Of a stretch of DNA of 61,730 nucleotides, positions 15,132 through 61,730 are shown one piece after another (the first letter of the stretch is position 1; every line of letters begins with the position of its first letter). Both the position numbers and the translations under genes were made by a program. The stretch spans positions 1 to 61,730 of the forward strand of contig CALRBA010000003.1 in the NCBI GenBank assembly GCA_943353835.1. The letters run 5' to 3'. Source of the DNA: Candidatus Nomurabacteria bacterium. Lineage in GTDB: Bacteria > Patescibacteriota > Minisyncoccia > Phycocordibacterales > Phycocordibacteraceae. A model generated the notes under the pieces. That model ran no database searches and was not told the DNA's origin. It worked only from the letters and a program-made list of their open reading frames with translations.

Positions 15132-17060
15132 ATGGCTGAAAAAATCCCGCCGGAACAGCTACAATCAGCGCCAGAAATTTCTCCGGAAGCGCAGAGGCTT
15201 GAAGCAGAAGAGCAGAGAGATATTGAGGAAAAGGTAGATGCGAGGATTGCAACAGAAGAAGTAGGGAAAGTTGAGGCTGGCCCTGTCAGTACAGAGCCGT
15301 TGCCAGCCATGTTTCGCAGTAATCGGAAGCGTCCGAAAAACAATGAACCCACGGTCATACCTGAAGATGATCAGCTCCTGAATCTCTTTAAAGAAAAGTA
15401 TGAAGCAATAGGCGAAGCTCCGATTATTCCAGACTCGGAGGACGCTCCTACCGAATTTCTGAACAACGACCATACGTCGCTTGAGTGGCGAGAAAAATTG
15501 CGCGGGCTCATCATGGTTGCGGAGAAGAGTCCTATCGGCAGTGAGCGCGGCGAAAGTTTGAAAACGTATCTCGCAGAGCGCTCAAAAGAATTGGGCGAGA
15601 AGGCGAAGGAGTACGGACCGAAGACAGTGGCTCTTATTGGTTCTCTGAGCGAGAAATATAATAAGCTGAACTGGAAAACGAAGATTGCGGTCACTGGCGG
15701 TCTCATTGCCAGTGTTTCGCTCACTTCGGCGGCATTTCCAATAATCTCAGCGATATTGGGCGGGGCACTGTATGGGCAGCGTGTCATCGGCGGCATCGGC
15801 TTCGCGATGAACCGGCGCAAGGCGCTTGATGCGAAGATAGCTGCGAACGCAGATCACTGGCTCGCAGGGAAGTCGGAACGAGTGAAAAATACATATGCGA
15901 CCGCTCTCGCGGCAGTTTATATGGGGAGTACCGCATTTGCCGTGCATGAAGGCGTTGAAGCGTTGAATGAACTTGGAGTAAATAAATGGCTGGGGAACAT
16001 GCTCGGGCATAAGCTCGAAGAAGTACCGGCCGCAACAACTGCGCCAATCGCAGAAGCAGTAGCACCCACCCCTGCTCCCGAAGTTCCAGCATCCGTAGCG
16101 CCAGAAATCCCTCAACCCGCGGCCGCAGCGGCCGCGGACGTGGAAGCTGTCGCATCTGCACTAGCGCCAGAAATCCATGGAATTGAAGTGACCGCAACGC
16201 CAGGAAAGGGTTATGAATACATGATGAAGCGACTGTGGGAACAGTTGCAAGAAAAAGGAATAAGCACTGAACAAGTAGAAAGATTCCGAGGAAGCGATCT
16301 TGGGAAGCTTCTTGAGGCGGACGAAAAATCAGTCAACGATGTGATACATAACATCGCAAAGGAACAAGGATTCTACAAGCCCGAAGGCACAAGCGTTCAG
16401 ATCAATCTTGGCGACAAGTTAAGCTTCAACGAAGAAGGCTCAATAGTTCTTGGTAATAAGGACGAATGGATTGTCAAAGCGCCTGCAAATGCGCCACTAA
16501 CGCCGGCGTACCCTCCGGAAACAATAGTTCGTCCAGAAATACCAGTGCCTCCGCTCGCGCAGGAAAACATCGCGACCTCAGAACCGATAAAAACAGTGGA
16601 CCTGACTGAGAAACAAGCAGTAGACGAAACCGAACTGCCGACGCCACCATCAGAGAACGACAGCTCAATCGTTCGCGACGGCCAAGGGCAAGCAGTGCTC
16701 GATGGGTCGGGTGAGCCGATTCGTACCGGGACATTTGAAACGTCGCCCGGCACGAATCAGTTTGGCCTCATAGTAGAGACCGCCAAGTCGCATATTTACG
16801 CAGGTGCTGGAGAAGGGCGAACATTCGTTTTTGGCGGTACGCCGGCTGAACGCGCAAATATGATTCTGGAACATCTAACTAAAAATCCAAACAGCGTCGT
16901 TTTCGGTACAGATGATTCCGAAAAATATCGTATTCCTTGGTATCTTGTGGAAGGAAAGATTACTCCGGGTGTACCGATGCGTACGAGCGGTTTCTTCGGG
17001 TTCGGTTCCACATGGATGAAACCGCCTGGTCCTGAGGATTTGGAAAAGGTTATTAAATAA
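15132..17060 (+). CDS. Hypothetical membrane protein with Pro/Ala/Glu-rich linkers
   Basis: 642-aa ORF 5 nt after the ATPase; central hydrophobic helices; PEVPA/PEIP low-complexity tract. Confidence 0.8.
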   Translation: MAEKIPPEQLQSAPEISPEAQRLEAEEQRDIEEKVDARIATEEVGKVEAGPVSTEPLPAMFRSNRKRPKNNEPTVIPEDDQLLNLFKEKYEAIGEAPIIPDSEDAPTEFLNNDHTSLEWREKLRGLIMVAEKSPIGSERGESLKTYLAERSKELGEKAKEYGPKTVALIGSLSEKYNKLNWKTKIAVTGGLIASVSLTSAAFPIISAILGGALYGQRVIGGIGFAMNRRKALDAKIAANADHWLAGKSERVKNTYATALAAVYMGSTAFAVHEGVEALNELGVNKWLGNMLGHKLEEVPAATTAPIAEAVAPTPAPEVPASVAPEIPQPAAAAAADVEAVASALAPEIHGIEVTATPGKGYEYMMKRLWEQLQEKGISTEQVERFRGSDLGKLLEADEKSVNDVIHNIAKEQGFYKPEGTSVQINLGDKLSFNEEGSIVLGNKDEWIVKAPANAPLTPAYPPETIVRPEIPVPPLAQENIATSEPIKTVDLTEKQAVDETELPTPPSENDSSIVRDGQGQAVLDGSGEPIRTGTFETSPGTNQFGLIVETAKSHIYAGAGEGRTFVFGGTPAERANMILEHLTKNPNSVVFGTDDSEKYRIPWYLVEGKITPGVPMRTSGFFGFGSTWMKPPGPEDLEKVIK

Positions 17061-18636: not shown

Positions 18637-19881
18637 ATGAGTGCTATTAATTTTAAAATAGAACAGCGCGCGCTTGGTTACCGAGAGCGCGCGGGCACAT
18701 TGACGACGCCACATGGCATTATCCGTACGCCAGCCTTCGCCCCGGTGGGGACAAAGGCCTCGGTGAAGGGCATTTTGCCGGAACAACTTGTGAAGCTCGG
18801 TGCTGAAGTGGTGCTCGCGAACACCTACCATCTCTATCTGCAGCCTGGAGAAAACACAGTGAAAAATGCCGGCGGGCTGGGGAAATTTATGGGTTGGCAG
18901 GGCCCCACGATGACCGATTCGGGCGGTTTCCAAGTCTTCTCGCTTGGCGCTGCGTTCGGCAAAAAAATCTCAAAATTTACAAGGTTAAACCTTGTCGAAA
19001 ACAAGCCTGTAAATACGCCGTCAATTTACGATGAAGAAATAGCAAGTCAGCACGGTCAACTCGCAATAATAGATGATGAGGGAGTATCGTTCACTTCGCA
19101 CGTAGACGGCTCGCTTCACCGCTTCACGCCAGAGCGCTCGGTGGAGATTCAACACGCGCTCGGTGCCGACATCTTCTTCGCCTTTGACGAATGTACGGCG
19201 CCGACCGAGCCATACGAGTATCAGAAAGAGGCGATGGAGCGTACACATCGTTGGGCGGAACGTAGCTTGAAAACGCATCGGCAGAATATTGACGCGAACA
19301 AGAAGCAAGCGATTTTCGGTATCGCACAGGGAGGACAGTTTGACGACCTTCGTCGGCAGAGTGCTAAGGCTATTGCTGAAATGGGGTTTGACGGATTTGG
19401 ATTAGGAGGCTCGTTCAGCAAGAAATACGGCGATGATTCTCTCCAGTCGGCGCTCGCGATGTTGAAGGAGTTGCCAGAGAATATGCCAGTGCACGGCCTC
19501 GGCATTGGCGAGCCCTGCGACTTGCTCGCAGCTATTTCTGCAGGTGTAGACATCTTTGACTGTGTCGCCGCCACGCGCATCGGTCGCCACAGTTCTCTCT
19601 ATACGATGCGAGGCATCATTCACTTACGCAATGGAGAATATCGTAACGATTTTTCCCCGCTCGACCCCGAGCTAGCAATAGCAGGGACGGAGACCTTCAC
19701 GCGCGCCTATGTCTCGCATCTCGTGCGTTCGGGCGAAATGCTCGGGTCAATCATCGTTTCCATGCACAATGTCGGCTTTATTTTGCAACTCGTTGCCGGC
19801 GCGCGTCAAGCAATTCTTGATGGACGTTTTGACGACTATCGTGCAGACTTCGTTCGCGACTACTATCATGGCCAATTTTAA
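18637..19881 (+). CDS. tgt: tRNA-guanine transglycosylase
   Basis: TPAFAPVGT, LANTYHL, TDSGGFQVFSL, FDEC, GVDIFDCV, HN; the CxCxxC zinc motif is absent. Confidence 0.95.
   Translation: MSAINFKIEQRALGYRERAGTLTTPHGIIRTPAFAPVGTKASVKGILPEQLVKLGAEVVLANTYHLYLQPGENTVKNAGGLGKFMGWQGPTMTDSGGFQVFSLGAAFGKKISKFTRLNLVENKPVNTPSIYDEEIASQHGQLAIIDDEGVSFTSHVDGSLHRFTPERSVEIQHALGADIFFAFDECTAPTEPYEYQKEAMERTHRWAERSLKTHRQNIDANKKQAIFGIAQGGQFDDLRRQSAKAIAEMGFDGFGLGGSFSKKYGDDSLQSALAMLKELPENMPVHGLGIGEPCDLLAAISAGVDIFDCVAATRIGRHSSLYTMRGIIHLRNGEYRNDFSPLDPELAIAGTETFTRAYVSHLVRSGEMLGSIIVSMHNVGFILQLVAGARQAILDGRFDDYRADFVRDYYHGQF
18979..18995. repeat. Single AAGGT-N3-ACCTT unit (copy 5) in frame in tgt
   Basis: acaaggttaaaccttgt; encodes TRLNLV; matches the arm of copy 2. 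Confidence 0.75.
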
Positions 19882-57606: not shown

Positions 57607-58860
57607 ATGACCCTGTCTGAAGAACTTAAAGCGCGCGGACTTATTGAGCACTCTTCTGCTCCGGTAGACCAGATTCTCTCTACCCCGCGGACGGTGTACT
57701 TAGGCATTGACCCGACCGCCGATTCTATGCAAGTGGGGAATCTCGCCGTCGTACTCCTTATGAAGCGTCTCGGAAACGCGGGCAACAAGCTTATCTTCCT
57801 CGTCGGCGGAGGCACCGGAATGATAGGGGACCCCAAGGAAGTCGGAGAGAGACCGATGCTTGATGAAAAAACCGTTGCACATAATACGCGTGCTCTGAAG
57901 TCTCAACTGAAAAAAATCCTCGGTAGCACATCTTTCAAAATGGTAGACAACGCCGATTGGCTCATGAGCGCGAAGTTCGTTCCGTTTCTGCGCGATGTAG
58001 GTAAGTACTTCACTGTGAATGATTTAATAAAGCGCGATGTCATCAAACGCCGTCTTGATAATCCGGATGACAGCATTTCATATACAGAATTTTCATACGC
58101 GCTCCTACAAGGACTGGATTATCTGACACTGAATGAGAAGTATGGTGTTGACTTACAGATTGGAGGCTCAGACCAGTGGACTAATATTCTCTCCGGTGTT
58201 GATTTAATACATAAACGCATAGGAAAACAGGTGTACGCGCTCGGAATGCCTCTCGTTACGGACGCCTTCGGTAAGAAGTTCGGTAAGAGTGAGGGCAACG
58301 CCGTATGGCTTGAGGCTTCAAGGACTTCGCCGTTTCGGTTCTACCAGTTTTGGATAAACTTGCCGGATGCAAATATTGAGAATTATCTGAAGGTCTACAC
58401 ATTTCTTCCGTTAATTGAAATTGAAGCCCTTATGGAACTGCACCTACGAAATCCCGGCGAGCGACAAGCGCAGGAGACGCTCGCTAGGCTTGTGACAGAG
58501 ACAGTGCACGGGCCGGCTGCCACAGCACAGTGCGCTGCCGCGAGCGACGCACTCTTCGGCGATACTCCGTTCAACGAGCTCTCACGCGAAGCACTCGCCG
58601 TGGCGCTCGCTGAAGCGCCTTCAGTCAAAATAGCAAGGCGAGGCCTTGCTGAAGGTTCCTTGCTCGCTGAAGCACTTGTCGCAGGAGGTCTCGCATCTTC
58701 AAAGAGCGACGCGCGCAGGCTTATAGAAGGGAAGGGCATCACGCTCTCCGGACAAACTATTTCAGATCCGGACCAGAAGGTGTATAACGGAGACTTGTCA
58801 AACGGCTATGCTCTCGTACGAAAAGGAAAACAAGGCGTCCTCGTCCTCGTTTTGAAATAA
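57607..58860 (+). CDS. tyrS: Tyrosine--tRNA ligase
   Basis: YLGIDPTADSMQVGN, LQIGGSDQW, KFGKS, C-terminal S4 domain. Confidence 0.97.
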   Translation: MTLSEELKARGLIEHSSAPVDQILSTPRTVYLGIDPTADSMQVGNLAVVLLMKRLGNAGNKLIFLVGGGTGMIGDPKEVGERPMLDEKTVAHNTRALKSQLKKILGSTSFKMVDNADWLMSAKFVPFLRDVGKYFTVNDLIKRDVIKRRLDNPDDSISYTEFSYALLQGLDYLTLNEKYGVDLQIGGSDQWTNILSGVDLIHKRIGKQVYALGMPLVTDAFGKKFGKSEGNAVWLEASRTSPFRFYQFWINLPDANIENYLKVYTFLPLIEIEALMELHLRNPGERQAQETLARLVTETVHGPAATAQCAAASDALFGDTPFNELSREALAVALAEAPSVKIARRGLAEGSLLAEALVAGGLASSKSDARRLIEGKGITLSGQTISDPDQKVYNGDLSNGYALVRKGKQGVLVLVLK

Positions 58861-60449
58861 AGACCGTATCGGCTATAGTTGTCGTATTGCGTCGGTACCC
58901 AAGCGGTCAACGGGGGCAGGCTGTAAACCTGCTGATTTCGGTCTTCGTTGGTTCGAATCCAACCCGGCGCACCATACAAGGGACAATTTTTCGGGAAATC
59001 CTGCTGTGCCTGTGCGAGATAAAGCCACTGATTCTGGGCGGTTCCGCGCGCTTCGCGCGCGTGGAGGGTGAGGTTCGAGCCGAAGACTTTTTGGAGGGAG
59101 GATTTTTTGGAGGGGTAGTTCTGACTTTGGGCTATTTCACTAAGCGCTTGCGCTTCGTTTATCCACTCTCGCATCGGTTCGAGCCAAGCGGCGGCGTCTC
59201 GTTCAAGAAGCAGGGATTGTTCCTGCAGAGACCTTTTCTCGGACATGAGAGCATGGCGACGTTCTAGGTAGTCGCCGCGCTCAATGTCCTGTTCGATGAA
59301 AAGGTCGGTGAGGCGGGCAATTTTGCCGTCCAGCACGGCAATCTTTGACCGCATCTCTTGGACAGACGCCGCCGCGATTTGCGTGGTTTCTTTTTCGTCT
59401 TTATCCATAAGCCGGTTGAGTTCAGCCGCCCACTCAAGCGGGAGGACAAATCGCGCGAGAAGTTCGGAGAGTTGGAAGTTCAAAGATTCTTCTCGCACAT
59501 AGGGCTCGGTGCAAACGCCTTTCTTCCGCGTACAGCGATAGTAGATATGCCCCTTCTGCTTTTCAGCAGAAATCGAACAGGTGCAAGTCTCACAGGAGAG
59601 CAGGCCGCAATATGCCTGTGGACTATTCTTCTGCACTCTTTTCTTGCCTCGTAACTTCAAAACTTCTTGCACTCGATCAAACAACTTCTTATCAACGAGC
59701 GGTGTATGCTTGCCCTCGTACACTTCGCCACCATATTTGAAATGACCGTAGTAAAAAATGTTTGAGAGCATCCATGTCATTTGATCTTTGGAATGCGCCT
59801 GACCGCCATTGTCGTTACCCCATCTTCGCGTCGCGTGAGTTCTAAGACCGTTCTGGTATAGAAAATTTGCAATATCTTCTAACCGATATTTATTCTCGGC
59901 ATACATCTCAAACGCCTTGCGAATGATGTGAGACTTCTTTCTGTCAACCACTATTGTCTTCGTGCGTGGGTTATTCAAATAGCCGAGCGGAGCCGAGCTT
60001 GGATAGATACCCTGACGTGCTTTCTCTCGAAGCCCGCGCTTGGTGTTCACACTCAAATCGCGGATGTACTGATTCGCCATCCCGAACTCCACTGACATCA
60101 TCAGAACATTGTCGGCGGGATAATAGGCGCGATCGTGCGTTTGGATATGTGCGATAACACTATTCTGCAAAAGCCACTGTATTTGCCCGCCATCTACCGG
60201 ATTGCGCGAGAGGCGGTCAAGCTTCCAACACACAATGCCTTGAGCTTCGCCTTTTTGTATTCGCGCCATCATCTCGTTGAACACGGGACGACCCGGCATT
60301 TTCGCCGACTTCTTCTCGACGAATACCTCAACGACGTTGAGTCGTTCCTGCTTCGCGAGAGTGCGCAATTCGGACAGCTGCGCCTCAATAGACAAAACCT
60401 GTTTGTCCTCAACATCGGTGCTTTTGCGTGCGTAGAGAAAATACTTCAT
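58806..60449 (-). CDS. Large serine recombinase; ORF reads antisense through tRNA-Tyr
   Basis: YARKST..SIEAQ, GRPVF, WKLDRLSRN, recombinase domain APLGY, GLLSC..C zinc ribbon, YYRC, coiled coil; start set at ATG 60449. Confidence 0.93.
   Translation of the reverse strand: MKYFLYARKSTDVEDKQVLSIEAQLSELRTLAKQERLNVVEVFVEKKSAKMPGRPVFNEMMARIQKGEAQGIVCWKLDRLSRNPVDGGQIQWLLQNSVIAHIQTHDRAYYPADNVLMMSVEFGMANQYIRDLSVNTKRGLREKARQGIYPSSAPLGYLNNPRTKTIVVDRKKSHIIRKAFEMYAENKYRLEDIANFLYQNGLRTHATRRWGNDNGGQAHSKDQMTWMLSNIFYYGHFKYGGEVYEGKHTPLVDKKLFDRVQEVLKLRGKKRVQKNSPQAYCGLLSCETCTCSISAEKQKGHIYYRCTRKKGVCTEPYVREESLNFQLSELLARFVLPLEWAAELNRLMDKDEKETTQIAAASVQEMRSKIAVLDGKIARLTDLFIEQDIERGDYLERRHALMSEKRSLQEQSLLLERDAAAWLEPMREWINEAQALSEIAQSQNYPSKKSSLQKVFGSNLTLHAREARGTAQNQWLYLAQAQQDFPKNCPLYGAPGWIRTNEDRNQQVYSLPPLTAWVPTQYDNYSRYGLYFKTRTRTPCFPFRTRA
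58889..58974 (+). tRNA. tRNA-Tyr(GTA) with encoded CCA; integration target
   Basis: Acceptor GCGTCGG/CCGGCGC, GCAGG-CTGTAAA-CCTGC, long variable arm. Confidence 0.96.
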
Positions 60450-60471
60450 ATTTGATATCATAGCAAATAAT

Positions 60472-60840
60472 ATGGATGTAAAGATGAAAAAAGTAAAAAC
60501 TACGCGACCTCCTGATGATATTTTAAAACAGATTGAAGAGCGAGATAAGGATTGTGTTTATTGTCACGGACCTTTTATAAAAGGTGACAACAACGCTTCC
60601 GCCACTGTTGAGCATTTGAATCACAGAAAGGATTGGGACAGTGTGGGGTGCTATATAGCCGAGGGAAAGGATGTCTCTAAAATTGTTGCGCGTTGTTGTC
60701 ATGCTTGTAATTCTAGTAGGAGCGACAAAAGCTTACTTGAGTGGTTTAAAACTCCATATTGCACAAGCAAAAAGATTAAAATTAAATACGATACAGTCGC
60801 CGCTGTTGTCAGAGATTATATTGATGCTTATGAAAAGTAA
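60472..60840 (+). CDS. HNH endonuclease domain protein
   Basis: RDKDCVYC..TVEHL..CCHACNSSRSDK. Confidence 0.88.
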   Translation: MDVKMKKVKTTRPPDDILKQIEERDKDCVYCHGPFIKGDNNASATVEHLNHRKDWDSVGCYIAEGKDVSKIVARCCHACNSSRSDKSLLEWFKTPYCTSKKIKIKYDTVAAVVRDYIDAYEK

Positions 60841-60848
60841 GTATATGG

Positions 60849-61343
60849 ATGGGAGCGAGAAAAAGAAGATTGGGCAGGGGGCTTACATCACGAGTATCAG
60901 CGGGGCTTTCTTTTATAGAATTTAATTACCTAAGTTATCATTCGACACCCGACCCAGCATGGATTAGAAATATCTACATTTTACTCTCGTTTTATACGGA
61001 GTTGTTACTAAAAGCGATATTTGTCGCCAAAAAGCAATTTATAGATGTCAACGATCTTGATAACAAATTGAGAAAAATCGGACACGATTTTGTTGTCGCC
61101 GCACGAGAAATTGGGAATGCAGACATGCAAGAATTTGGAATAAAGGATATTCGATTTATAAATCACGAATATATTGTCGAAACCGAGGACGGAGAATTTT
61201 ATGTCAAAGACTTCAACGATATTCGATACGACTTTATTGAGAGAAAAGTACGAACTCTGAACGGCGATGAGCATGAGAAATTTAAAAAACAAATCGAGAT
61301 AATGCTAAAAATCAACGGCAAGCTAAAACCGCTTGTGTGGTAG
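60849..61343 (+). CDS. Hypothetical helical protein, HEPN-like
   Basis: ELLLKA..KIGHD..IRYD spacing resembles HEPN families; 8 nt after the HNH gene. Confidence 0.5.
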   Translation: MGARKRRLGRGLTSRVSAGLSFIEFNYLSYHSTPDPAWIRNIYILLSFYTELLLKAIFVAKKQFIDVNDLDNKLRKIGHDFVVAAREIGNADMQEFGIKDIRFINHEYIVETEDGEFYVKDFNDIRYDFIERKVRTLNGDEHEKFKKQIEIMLKINGKLKPLVW

Positions 61344-61433
61344 GGAGCTTCGCTGGTTTCAGACCCGCCAGCGAAGGACTCGGTGTGCGCACGGGTGGGC
61401 GGGGCAAACACACGATGTATTCGTATTGGTATT

Positions 61434-61643
61434 CCCCTCCAAAAAATCCTCCCTCCAAAAAGTCTTCGGCTTCTGAATTTTTGAACCTCCCCCCACGCGC
61501 GCGAAGCGCGCGGAACCGCCCAGAATCAGTGGCTTTATCTCGCACAGGCAAAACAGAACTTCCCGAAAATGGGACTTGTCTCTTGTATGGTGGCTCTATA
61601 CTACCAAACTCGAACCTATTTCACCCAGAGCCCGAAGCAATGA
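61434..61643 (+). pseudogene. Inverted copy of the recombinase 3' end with an alternative C-terminus
   Basis: Translates PSKKSSLQKVFG (disrupted) then HAREARGTAQNQWLYLAQAKQNFPKMGLVSCMVALYYQTRTYFTQSPKQ-stop. Confidence 0.8.
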
Positions 61644-61730
61644 TCACTCGCGCCTCGCAGAGCCTCGGCGCTCGCCCCGCTCGCGGACTCGCGGGGCCGC
61701 CCTTCGCCCTGCCGTCTCATACTTTCTTTT

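Follow-up and report, generated by a model that had tools for sequence, protein, structure and literature searches.

The window analysed here, 61,730 nt long, is the entire contig C3 (CALRBA010000003.1) of the Candidatus Nomurabacteria bacterium assembly GCA_943353835.1, a genome of 534 kb in 13 contigs, and at its right end there is probably a small mobile element in its integrated state, with a large serine recombinase (LSR) as its driver. On the host side stand tyrS (tyrosine-tRNA ligase; 57607..58860, + strand; Pfam tRNA-synt_1b, E value 1.3e-70), to the left of the insertion, and tRNA-Tyr(GTA) (58889..58974, + strand; ARAGORN), whose T-arm and acceptor 3' strand would serve as the B arm of an attL site. 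Converging on them is an open reading frame (ORF) of 551 aa with Resolvase and Recombinase domains (58806..60461, - strand), which enters the tRNA gene at its 3' end and continues antisense through it, as a preliminary description of this DNA had noted. Two cargo ORFs lie on the other side of the recombinase, one of 122 aa (60472..60840, + strand) with a weak HNH / endonuclease VII-like similarity (PHROGs phrog_1035, 2.3e-5, and phrog_2214, 4.6e-5; no match in Pfam or NCBIfam) and one of 164 aa (60849..61343, + strand) without a match in Pfam, PHROGs or NCBIfam; neither offers an informative family as a candidate recombination directionality factor. Beyond the cargo follow an inverted copy of the recombinase 3' end (61434..61592, + strand) and a flank that we call X (61593..61730, - strand), with which the contig ends.

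Homology supports 58977-60461 (495 aa) of the recombinase ORF, its final 56 codons being read-through into the antisense tRNA. PF00239 (Resolvase) matches residues 8-151 (E 1.2e-21) and PF07508 (Recombinase) matches at E 5.7e-16, while the PF13408 zinc ribbon reaches 21.2 bits, under its 25.3 cut-off, and is precomputed for nearly all listed homologues. Across 17 homologues the R-K-S14 motif, aligned with R-R-S of SPbeta YokA, and the cysteines C290, C293, C310 and C317 are invariant, and the residues beyond the core show no conservation. YokA, the SPbeta integrase, is the best solved relative (E 1.7e-8); a weak Rad50 coiled-coil match over residues 344-442 is a hint only. Judged by its sequence, the protein is a large serine recombinase (serine integrase). 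We rejected an IS607-family serine transposase (NF033518, 23.5 bits vs. a cut-off of 110) and a small serine DNA invertase of the Hin/Gin kind (the protein has 495 aa with LSR domains, and the outer arms of its sites differ, tRNA vs. X), and similarity to NCBIfam models is weak (XisF 85 bits, CcrB 84 bits; curated cut-offs 375-900 bits). In the 6063 database homologues similarity stops near residue 491-495, which is the tRNA end. Several of these homologues (P0002-P0118, alignment A2 columns 530-589) terminate in G-(I/F/L)-E-P, the translation of an antisense T-loop; gene callers thus routinely carry these reading frames on into the tRNA.

We found that the tRNA end together with the last ~45 recombinase codons (58970..59115, + strand; P' arm and beyond) recurs, inverted and non-coding, as the right arm at 61434..61592, 2.3 kb away, where it would form the P' arm of a second, spare attP. 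A single BLAST match joins the two at 84.5% over 161 columns (E 7e-47), and the inverted-repeat search resolves it into three gapless blocks, 58988-59068/61489-61569 (81 nt, 94%), 59078-59115/61434-61471 (38 nt, 100%) and 58970-58986/61576-61592 (17 nt, 94%). Identity stops at CACCATACAAG (58970-58980), which begins with the CACCA of the tRNA, and at CTTGTATGGTG (61582-61592); the latter, the complement of CACCATACAAG by sequence comparison, is the core of the spare attP (- strand). Beside the core the left copy is without 5 nt (GTCCC) that the right copy has. The preliminary description had reported the inverted recurrence, its exact end at a sequence including the complement of the tRNA's CACCA, and the net 5-nt deletion of the left copy, and we confirm all three. 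It had further read the right copy as continuing in frame to a different, natural-looking C-terminus, which is correct for the second piece, encoding HAREARGTAQNQWLYLAQAKQNFPKMGLVSCMVALYYQTRTYFTQSPKQ-stop; but an 8-nt insertion containing a stop (TGA 61474-61476) leaves the first part, ending in PSKKSSLQKVFGF-stop, in another frame, and the right copy is therefore two out-of-frame pieces, not one open frame. Inspected by eye in this window, the X and tail half-sites showed no clear dyad beyond GTAT..ATAC.

The X flank extends 138 nt past the core of the spare attP to the contig terminus and would be its P arm, the spare attP overall (tail copy, core, X flank) occupying 61434-61625. It contains a mimic of the tRNA T-loop (GGTTCGAG, complement at 61609-61616) and a GC-rich repeat (61635-61714), and it is duplicated in inverted orientation at C2:1-138. 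Contig C2 opens with the X flank, continues with CACCATACAAGGGACAATTTTT (22 nt, equal to 58970-58991, the attL core on the + strand, of which 58970-58980 is also common to the spare attP) and then with TGTGATATCGTAGATAAATG, which starts trpS. Since TGTGATATCGTA-like sequence stands immediately 5' of trpS in most of 29 genus relatives, this trpS leader is native host DNA; in 8 of the 29, tyrS and/or tRNA-Tyr lies within ~1.5 kb upstream of trpS. The genome thus holds three junctions, tRNA-Tyr/core/tail (s1, an attL), X/core/tail copy (s2, attP-type and inverted) and X/core/trpS (s3, an attR in direct orientation). Because the attR with its 22-nt core opens C2, the element lies between tRNA-Tyr and trpS, and the reconstructed genome order is tyrS, tRNA-Tyr, core, tail-recombinase-cargo-tail copy, core, X (reverse complement), a segment U, X, core, trpS. 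A direct-repeat attR, which the preliminary description had suggested looking for beyond the window, is accordingly present on C2, and its reading of the left site as attL-like and of the inverted right site as an intact attP is supported.

A search of X for an RNA gene gave no Rfam match at E <= 1 and no tRNA or tmRNA by ARAGORN. The family consensus of X has a TATA(A/G)(T/A)-like hexamer beside the core; we rejected a promoter directed toward the core, a consensus scan finding none in 61580-61730, and the 3 sites in the region being no more than in shuffles.

To place this arrangement in its family, we took a census of 80 loci from one-genome-per-species contigs, 57 of them evaluable (a full recombinase 3' end and at least 60 nt beyond). 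ARAGORN called a convergent tRNA gene within 150 nt in 43 of the 57, spanning 18 anticodon types, and further loci have a visible T-arm. An inverted copy of the recombinase 3' end was found in 42 of the 57 (75-243 nt, median 161; 83-100% identical, median 92), 118-8131 nt upstream of the recombinase start codon. The comparison of homologues suggested by the preliminary description extends the inverted copy to the family; the C-termini past the core are unconserved. Among the window and 10 genus-relative loci, the recombinase 3' end abuts a tRNA 3' end in 9 of 11 (Tyr, Ser, Glu, Ile, Glu, Val, Gln, Asn and Thr), and the inverted copy is found in 9 of 11; of the two others, G031 has its copy 8.1 kb upstream, beyond the stretch first fetched. 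Only 4 of the 57 loci (L053, L056, L085 and L088) have X next to the recombinase in place of a tRNA. Where the sequence goes on, in seven elements (G017, G007, L043, L044, L061, L068 and L107), two inverted X copies enclose a U segment of 0.4-6.4 kb, and unrelated DNA comes after the second; inverted X arms around U, with an attR, are also found in an element at the tmRNA gene of the window's own genome (G000:C8), making eight in total. That element, whose LSR is the second of the genome and 37% identical to the first, has the complete layout on a single contig (C8:14803-19183), with attL at the tmRNA end (C8:15202), the spare attP at 16899 and attR at 19175, before the native tmRNA terminator.

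Several further observations concern related recombinases and elements. The LSR of the tmRNA element occupies 15327-16715; its tail repeat (15202-15334/16767-16899) is 98.5% identical, with the core CCAC, and its X repeat (16892-17079/18996-19183), 98.4% identical, surrounds a Bro-N-like gene (named by eye). Within X, 80 GC-rich nt (window 61635-61714) recur at 91-94% in this element (C8:16936-17017 and 19058-19139), the two recombinases being only 37% identical. A third LSR of the genome (G000:C2:47042-48667; 41% identical) adjoins tRNA-Asn, and no inverted repeat was detected within 12 kb of it. Locus L088 (JBBTPY010000001.1, 2245-15686) is an array of several repeat-bounded modules at tRNA-Leu with alternating core orientation; one of the modules, 155 nt long, has two P'-like ends, and in the array a recombinase tail abuts X.

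The geometry of the sites points to how they may be told apart. Over elements at different tRNAs, X has the consensus AAAtAgGTTCGaactt.gTcgTAtAga.t followed by the core, and this conservation means that X belongs to the element and travels with it. Among 34 related loci, GTTC stands 23 nt from the boundary (-23) on the X side in 26 and 19 nt from it (-19) on the tRNA side in 25; the T-loop GTTC of the window's tRNA-Tyr likewise stands at -19. There are 31 loci where each side has one motif, and the tRNA-side and X-side positions are offset by exactly 4 nt in every one of them (in the tmRNA element the offset is 6 nt, not 4). Passages of PMC3783163 report that, for the LI integrase, the motif bound by the zinc-ribbon domain (ZD) is 5 bp nearer the centre in attB than in attP, and that this spacing difference is held to set site identity and directionality. 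The present family appears, from its aligned sites, to use the universal T-loop as an attB motif and the T-loop mimic as an attP motif, which would explain entry into many different tRNAs. In seven elements for which all three junctions are available, the tmRNA element among them, s1, s2 and s3 share 3-7 nt (AGC, GAGCA, GAGC, CAC, CACCAAA, TCAC and CCAC), located at the acceptor-stem end, the discriminator and the first C of CCA, and so short a shared core fits a serine-recombinase crossover.

We also scanned metagenome contigs for the 17-nt core, which gave 100 stretches, 80 of them fetched; the left flank resembles a tRNA or X in 16. One tRNA-Tyr allele (45 identical nt) is represented in three states: empty (L147), where it is followed by unrelated terminator-bearing DNA; occupied (L185); and scarred (L165), with a 14-nt tail. 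Other tRNA-Tyr alleles (L148 and L175) are occupied, the recombinase continuing beyond the tail. The X-flanked sites of tRNA-Tyr type in L176, L181 and L186 carry a tail fragment only, despite more than 250 nt following, and are spare sites; a fourth X-flanked site has a tail match only, its sequence ending too soon to tell. L205 is ambiguous (tRNA, core and an 87-nt tail match, then no recombinase similarity). Hybrid junctions of a flipped state were not recognisable in the 80 fetched stretches. The core-proximal CAAGAGACAAGTCCCATTTTCGGG of the window's right arm is family-typical and present in 10 metagenome contigs; likewise, the spare site has the family-typical CAAGAGACAAGTCCCATTTTCGGGAA (10 metagenome contigs), where attL instead has CAAGGGACAA-TTTTTCGGGAA. 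The 5-nt deletion beside the core is unique to the left copy, and none of the fetched stretches joins such a version to a recombinase tail.

We consider it likely that the window holds the integrated form of a small LSR-driven mobile element that keeps a spare inverted attP. The element would have inserted at the discriminator/CCA end of tRNA-Tyr, using an attP whose P' arm is supplied by the recombinase gene's own 3' end, so that integration would have replaced the last codons with antisense tRNA, leaving attL at 58970 and attR (X, core, native trpS leader) at the start of C2; between them would remain a second complete attP, inverted, at 61434-61625. Two modules joined at the cores would make up the element, one consisting of recombinase and cargo and bounded by the inverted tails, the other of the U segment, absent from the assembly, and bounded by the inverted X arms. 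As the P arm, X would imitate the T-loop 4 nt further from the crossover, the kind of attP/attB discrimination made by serine integrases. A free circle would carry two inverted attP sites, of which the one in the recombinase gene would integrate and the other would stay spare. The arms may be kept alike by gene conversion, to which it points that the X arms (97.5-100% alike) are consistently more alike than the tail arms of the same elements. In 37 pairs, arm differences amount to 2-4% in the first 60 nt from the core vs. 9-11% at 106-135 nt, a gradient that speaks for a maintained function of the spare site but is partly built in by the BLAST delimitation of the repeats, which favours this pattern. 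Flipping of the modules would be possible in principle but rare or transient.

Several observations weigh against this reading. The assembly lacks the U segment and the outer part of X, and a spare copy was undetected in 15 of the 57 evaluable loci (5 with more than 7 kb upstream, 8 with less than 1.7 kb upstream). We found no free circular form and no relatives in IMG/VR (protein or alignment query), and identity to plasmid and phage collections is at most 29%. Two equivalent attP sites should give both orientations, yet the recombinase abuts X in only 4 of 57 loci. The stretch common to attL and attR is 22 nt in the window, against 3-7 nt in other elements, because the first 17 nt of the attL CAAGGGACAA-TTTTTCGGGAA match native DNA downstream of tRNA-Tyr (L147, attR), and the P' arm of attL differs from that of the spare site at about 11 of the first 45 positions. 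Neither the 22-nt sharing nor these differences are predicted by a simple 2-nt crossover with an attP of the present spare type; the attL arm could possibly be explained by gene conversion acting later from attR, or by a match to the host that the attP already had. With the loss of 5 nt, the distal P' motif comes nearer to the core, by an amount close to the attP-to-attB shift. The altered P' arm may have immobilised this copy, and normal excision may be lost.

An inverted repeat only 138 nt from a contig end invites the suspicion of a fold-back or chimeric assembly, a concern that the preliminary description had raised itself. Against it, the two copies differ by substitutions and indels, a public and independent assembly of a run (X1; Logan contigs) contains an exact 178-nt contig across the junction (61434-61611), and complete genomes of relatives have an equal layout (G017), all of which makes such an artefact next to impossible. 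The contig-end overlaps of at least 15 nt in the assembly number six, each exactly 149 nt, and the final 149 nt of C3 are the reverse complement of C2:1-149; because all overlaps have this length, the end of C3 is a branch of the assembly graph within a repeat, not a fold-back. The depth of the X piece in X1 (45 vs. 18-22) hints at two copies, but its words are common with the C8 repeat. The four best runs are represented by Logan contigs (k = 31 unitigs), which are broken at repeats, and orientation is not readable from them; one Logan joint that skips 2356 nt (59076 to 61433) has a side of 26, too short for interpretation. In 21 of the 42 loci with an inverted copy, this lies at most 340 nt from the locus start, which equals the contig end in the rows compared, and assemblies therefore break in X. 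The inverted arms of these elements regularly break assemblies, which bears on assembly quality. A relic of a second related element, inserted head-to-head and then mostly deleted, was the alternative offered by the preliminary description and would agree with copies that differ by 16%, with indels; yet the inverted fragment always ends at the same core and X motif, in 42 of 57 loci at 18 tRNA types, and does so also in the tmRNA element of the window's genome, and we reject the relic as extremely improbable. Very improbable, too, is an insertion sequence (IS)-like transposon bounded by two inverted tails, with X as the host DNA to its right: some relatives do have only the recombinase between the arms (e.g. 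L047, 118 nt from arm to start codon), but elements at different tRNAs conserve the X motif (AAAtAgGTTCGaactt.gTcgTAtA), X recurs inverted and is then followed by host DNA in eight elements, and here the trpS leader comes after the second X.

The arrangement could also be a working invertible switch, in which the recombinase/cargo module is inverted by its recombinase or by RecA at the 146-nt arms, exchanging the recombinase C-terminus between a tail antisense to the tRNA and one encoded by X and reorienting the cargo. The sites are inverted, and exchange between s1 and s2 would regenerate the same two site types while flipping a 2.6-kb module; the arms stay 83-100% alike in 42 loci, with rarer differences near the core (37 pairs, again with the bias from repeat delimitation), and the recombinase does adjoin X in 4 of 57 loci. 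Orientation is nevertheless nearly invariant, with a called tRNA in 43 of 57 and a visible T-arm in further loci, the residues after the core are not conserved, and in the window the reading frame would not survive a crossover upstream of the 8-nt insertion. Canonical serine integrases, according to passages of PMC3783163, do not recombine attL with attP. We judge a working switch unlikely, and the idea of the preliminary description that inversion swaps the recombinase tail is not supported, given the four X-adjacent loci, the unconserved residues, the broken frame of the spare copy and the metagenome X sites that carry tails only. Also doubtful, though we keep it as a tentative possibility, is a two-module flip-flop, in which a rare inversion (by RecA on the 150-nt arms or by the integrase) takes the recombinase gene away from the tRNA junction, puts it at the intact attP and so switches a dormant insert to a mobile one, or allows a 2-micron-like amplification of the free circle. 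If this were true, the recombinase gene would escape convergent tRNA transcription and regain an uninterrupted gene end, and the P' arm of the 5-nt-deleted attL, having attB-like spacing, could let attL and the spare attP act as attB and attP in an inversion.

Around the insertion site, relatives of the genus offered some additional observations. The close relative G014 (L115, G014:C36) retains 16 nt of the X end (GGTAGTATAGAGCCAC), 9 nt ahead of the native trpS leader, and this remnant looks like the scar of an old attR. In two others, L111 (G007:C3) and L119 (G005:C16), a small inversion has turned the target, tRNA-Tyr, around with respect to tyrS and trpS. Most relatives (L108-L137) conserve T(G)TG(G/A)TATCGTA 5-6 nt before the trpS start codon, which may be the extended -10 element of a nearly leaderless trpS mRNA.

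Compared with known systems, the element appears to be a variant of serine-integrase integrative elements that is apparently undescribed. With the large serine integrases of phages and elements (SPbeta SprA/YokA, Listeria A118/LI, phiC31 and Bxb1) it shares the Resolvase, Recombinase and zinc-ribbon architecture, a short crossover core (here 3-7 nt) and, as passages of PMC3783163 describe, the same motif at shifted positions in the half-sites of attP and attB. Unlike them, it targets the 3' ends of many tRNAs and of tmRNA, apparently through the universal T-loop, has its attP inside the recombinase's own 3' end and keeps a complete second attP, inverted, inside the element; its cargo is tiny, without phage genes, and identity to phage and plasmid records is at most 29%. 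The archaeal integrases of the SSV and pTN3 types are tyrosine recombinases with attP inside the integrase gene, which is split in two; they too integrate at tRNA genes and disrupt their own integrase gene, whereas here the replacement affects only codons past the conserved end, and the element retains a spare inverted site. FLP of the yeast 2-micron circle, a eukaryotic plasmid, is a tyrosine recombinase whose flipping serves copy-number amplification; its FRT target sites likewise lie within long inverted repeats that divide the element into two invertible segments, but we found no replication function and no free form here. The invertases Hin, Gin, Cin and Pin are small (~190 aa), act on identical sites and depend on a Fis-bound enhancer, and in Gin, Cin and Pin the crossover falls within a gene, whose C-terminal part it exchanges; inverted sites served by a serine recombinase are common to these invertases and to our element, which differs in its 495-aa LSR, in sites of different type (attL and attP) and in a nearly fixed orientation. 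To Ccr (SCCmec), XisF and TnpX/TndX there is weak NCBIfam similarity only, and targets and element structure differ. A full-text literature search found no description of tRNA-targeting LSR elements with an internal inverted attP, and neither tRNA nor inverted repeats come up in the main text of a large LSR survey (PMC10083194).

The appeal of serine integrases is that they need no more than two short sites and work in one direction, and the present family is a natural example of targeting that is broad yet precise, the T-loop apparently being read as an attB motif. A conserved inverted second site, combined with an attP in the integrase gene, is neither predicted nor explained by current models of serine-integrase directionality, and the role of the spare site could reveal a new control of these enzymes. 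The family appears to be a major and apparently undescribed class of mobile DNA in the very small genomes of Patescibacteria.

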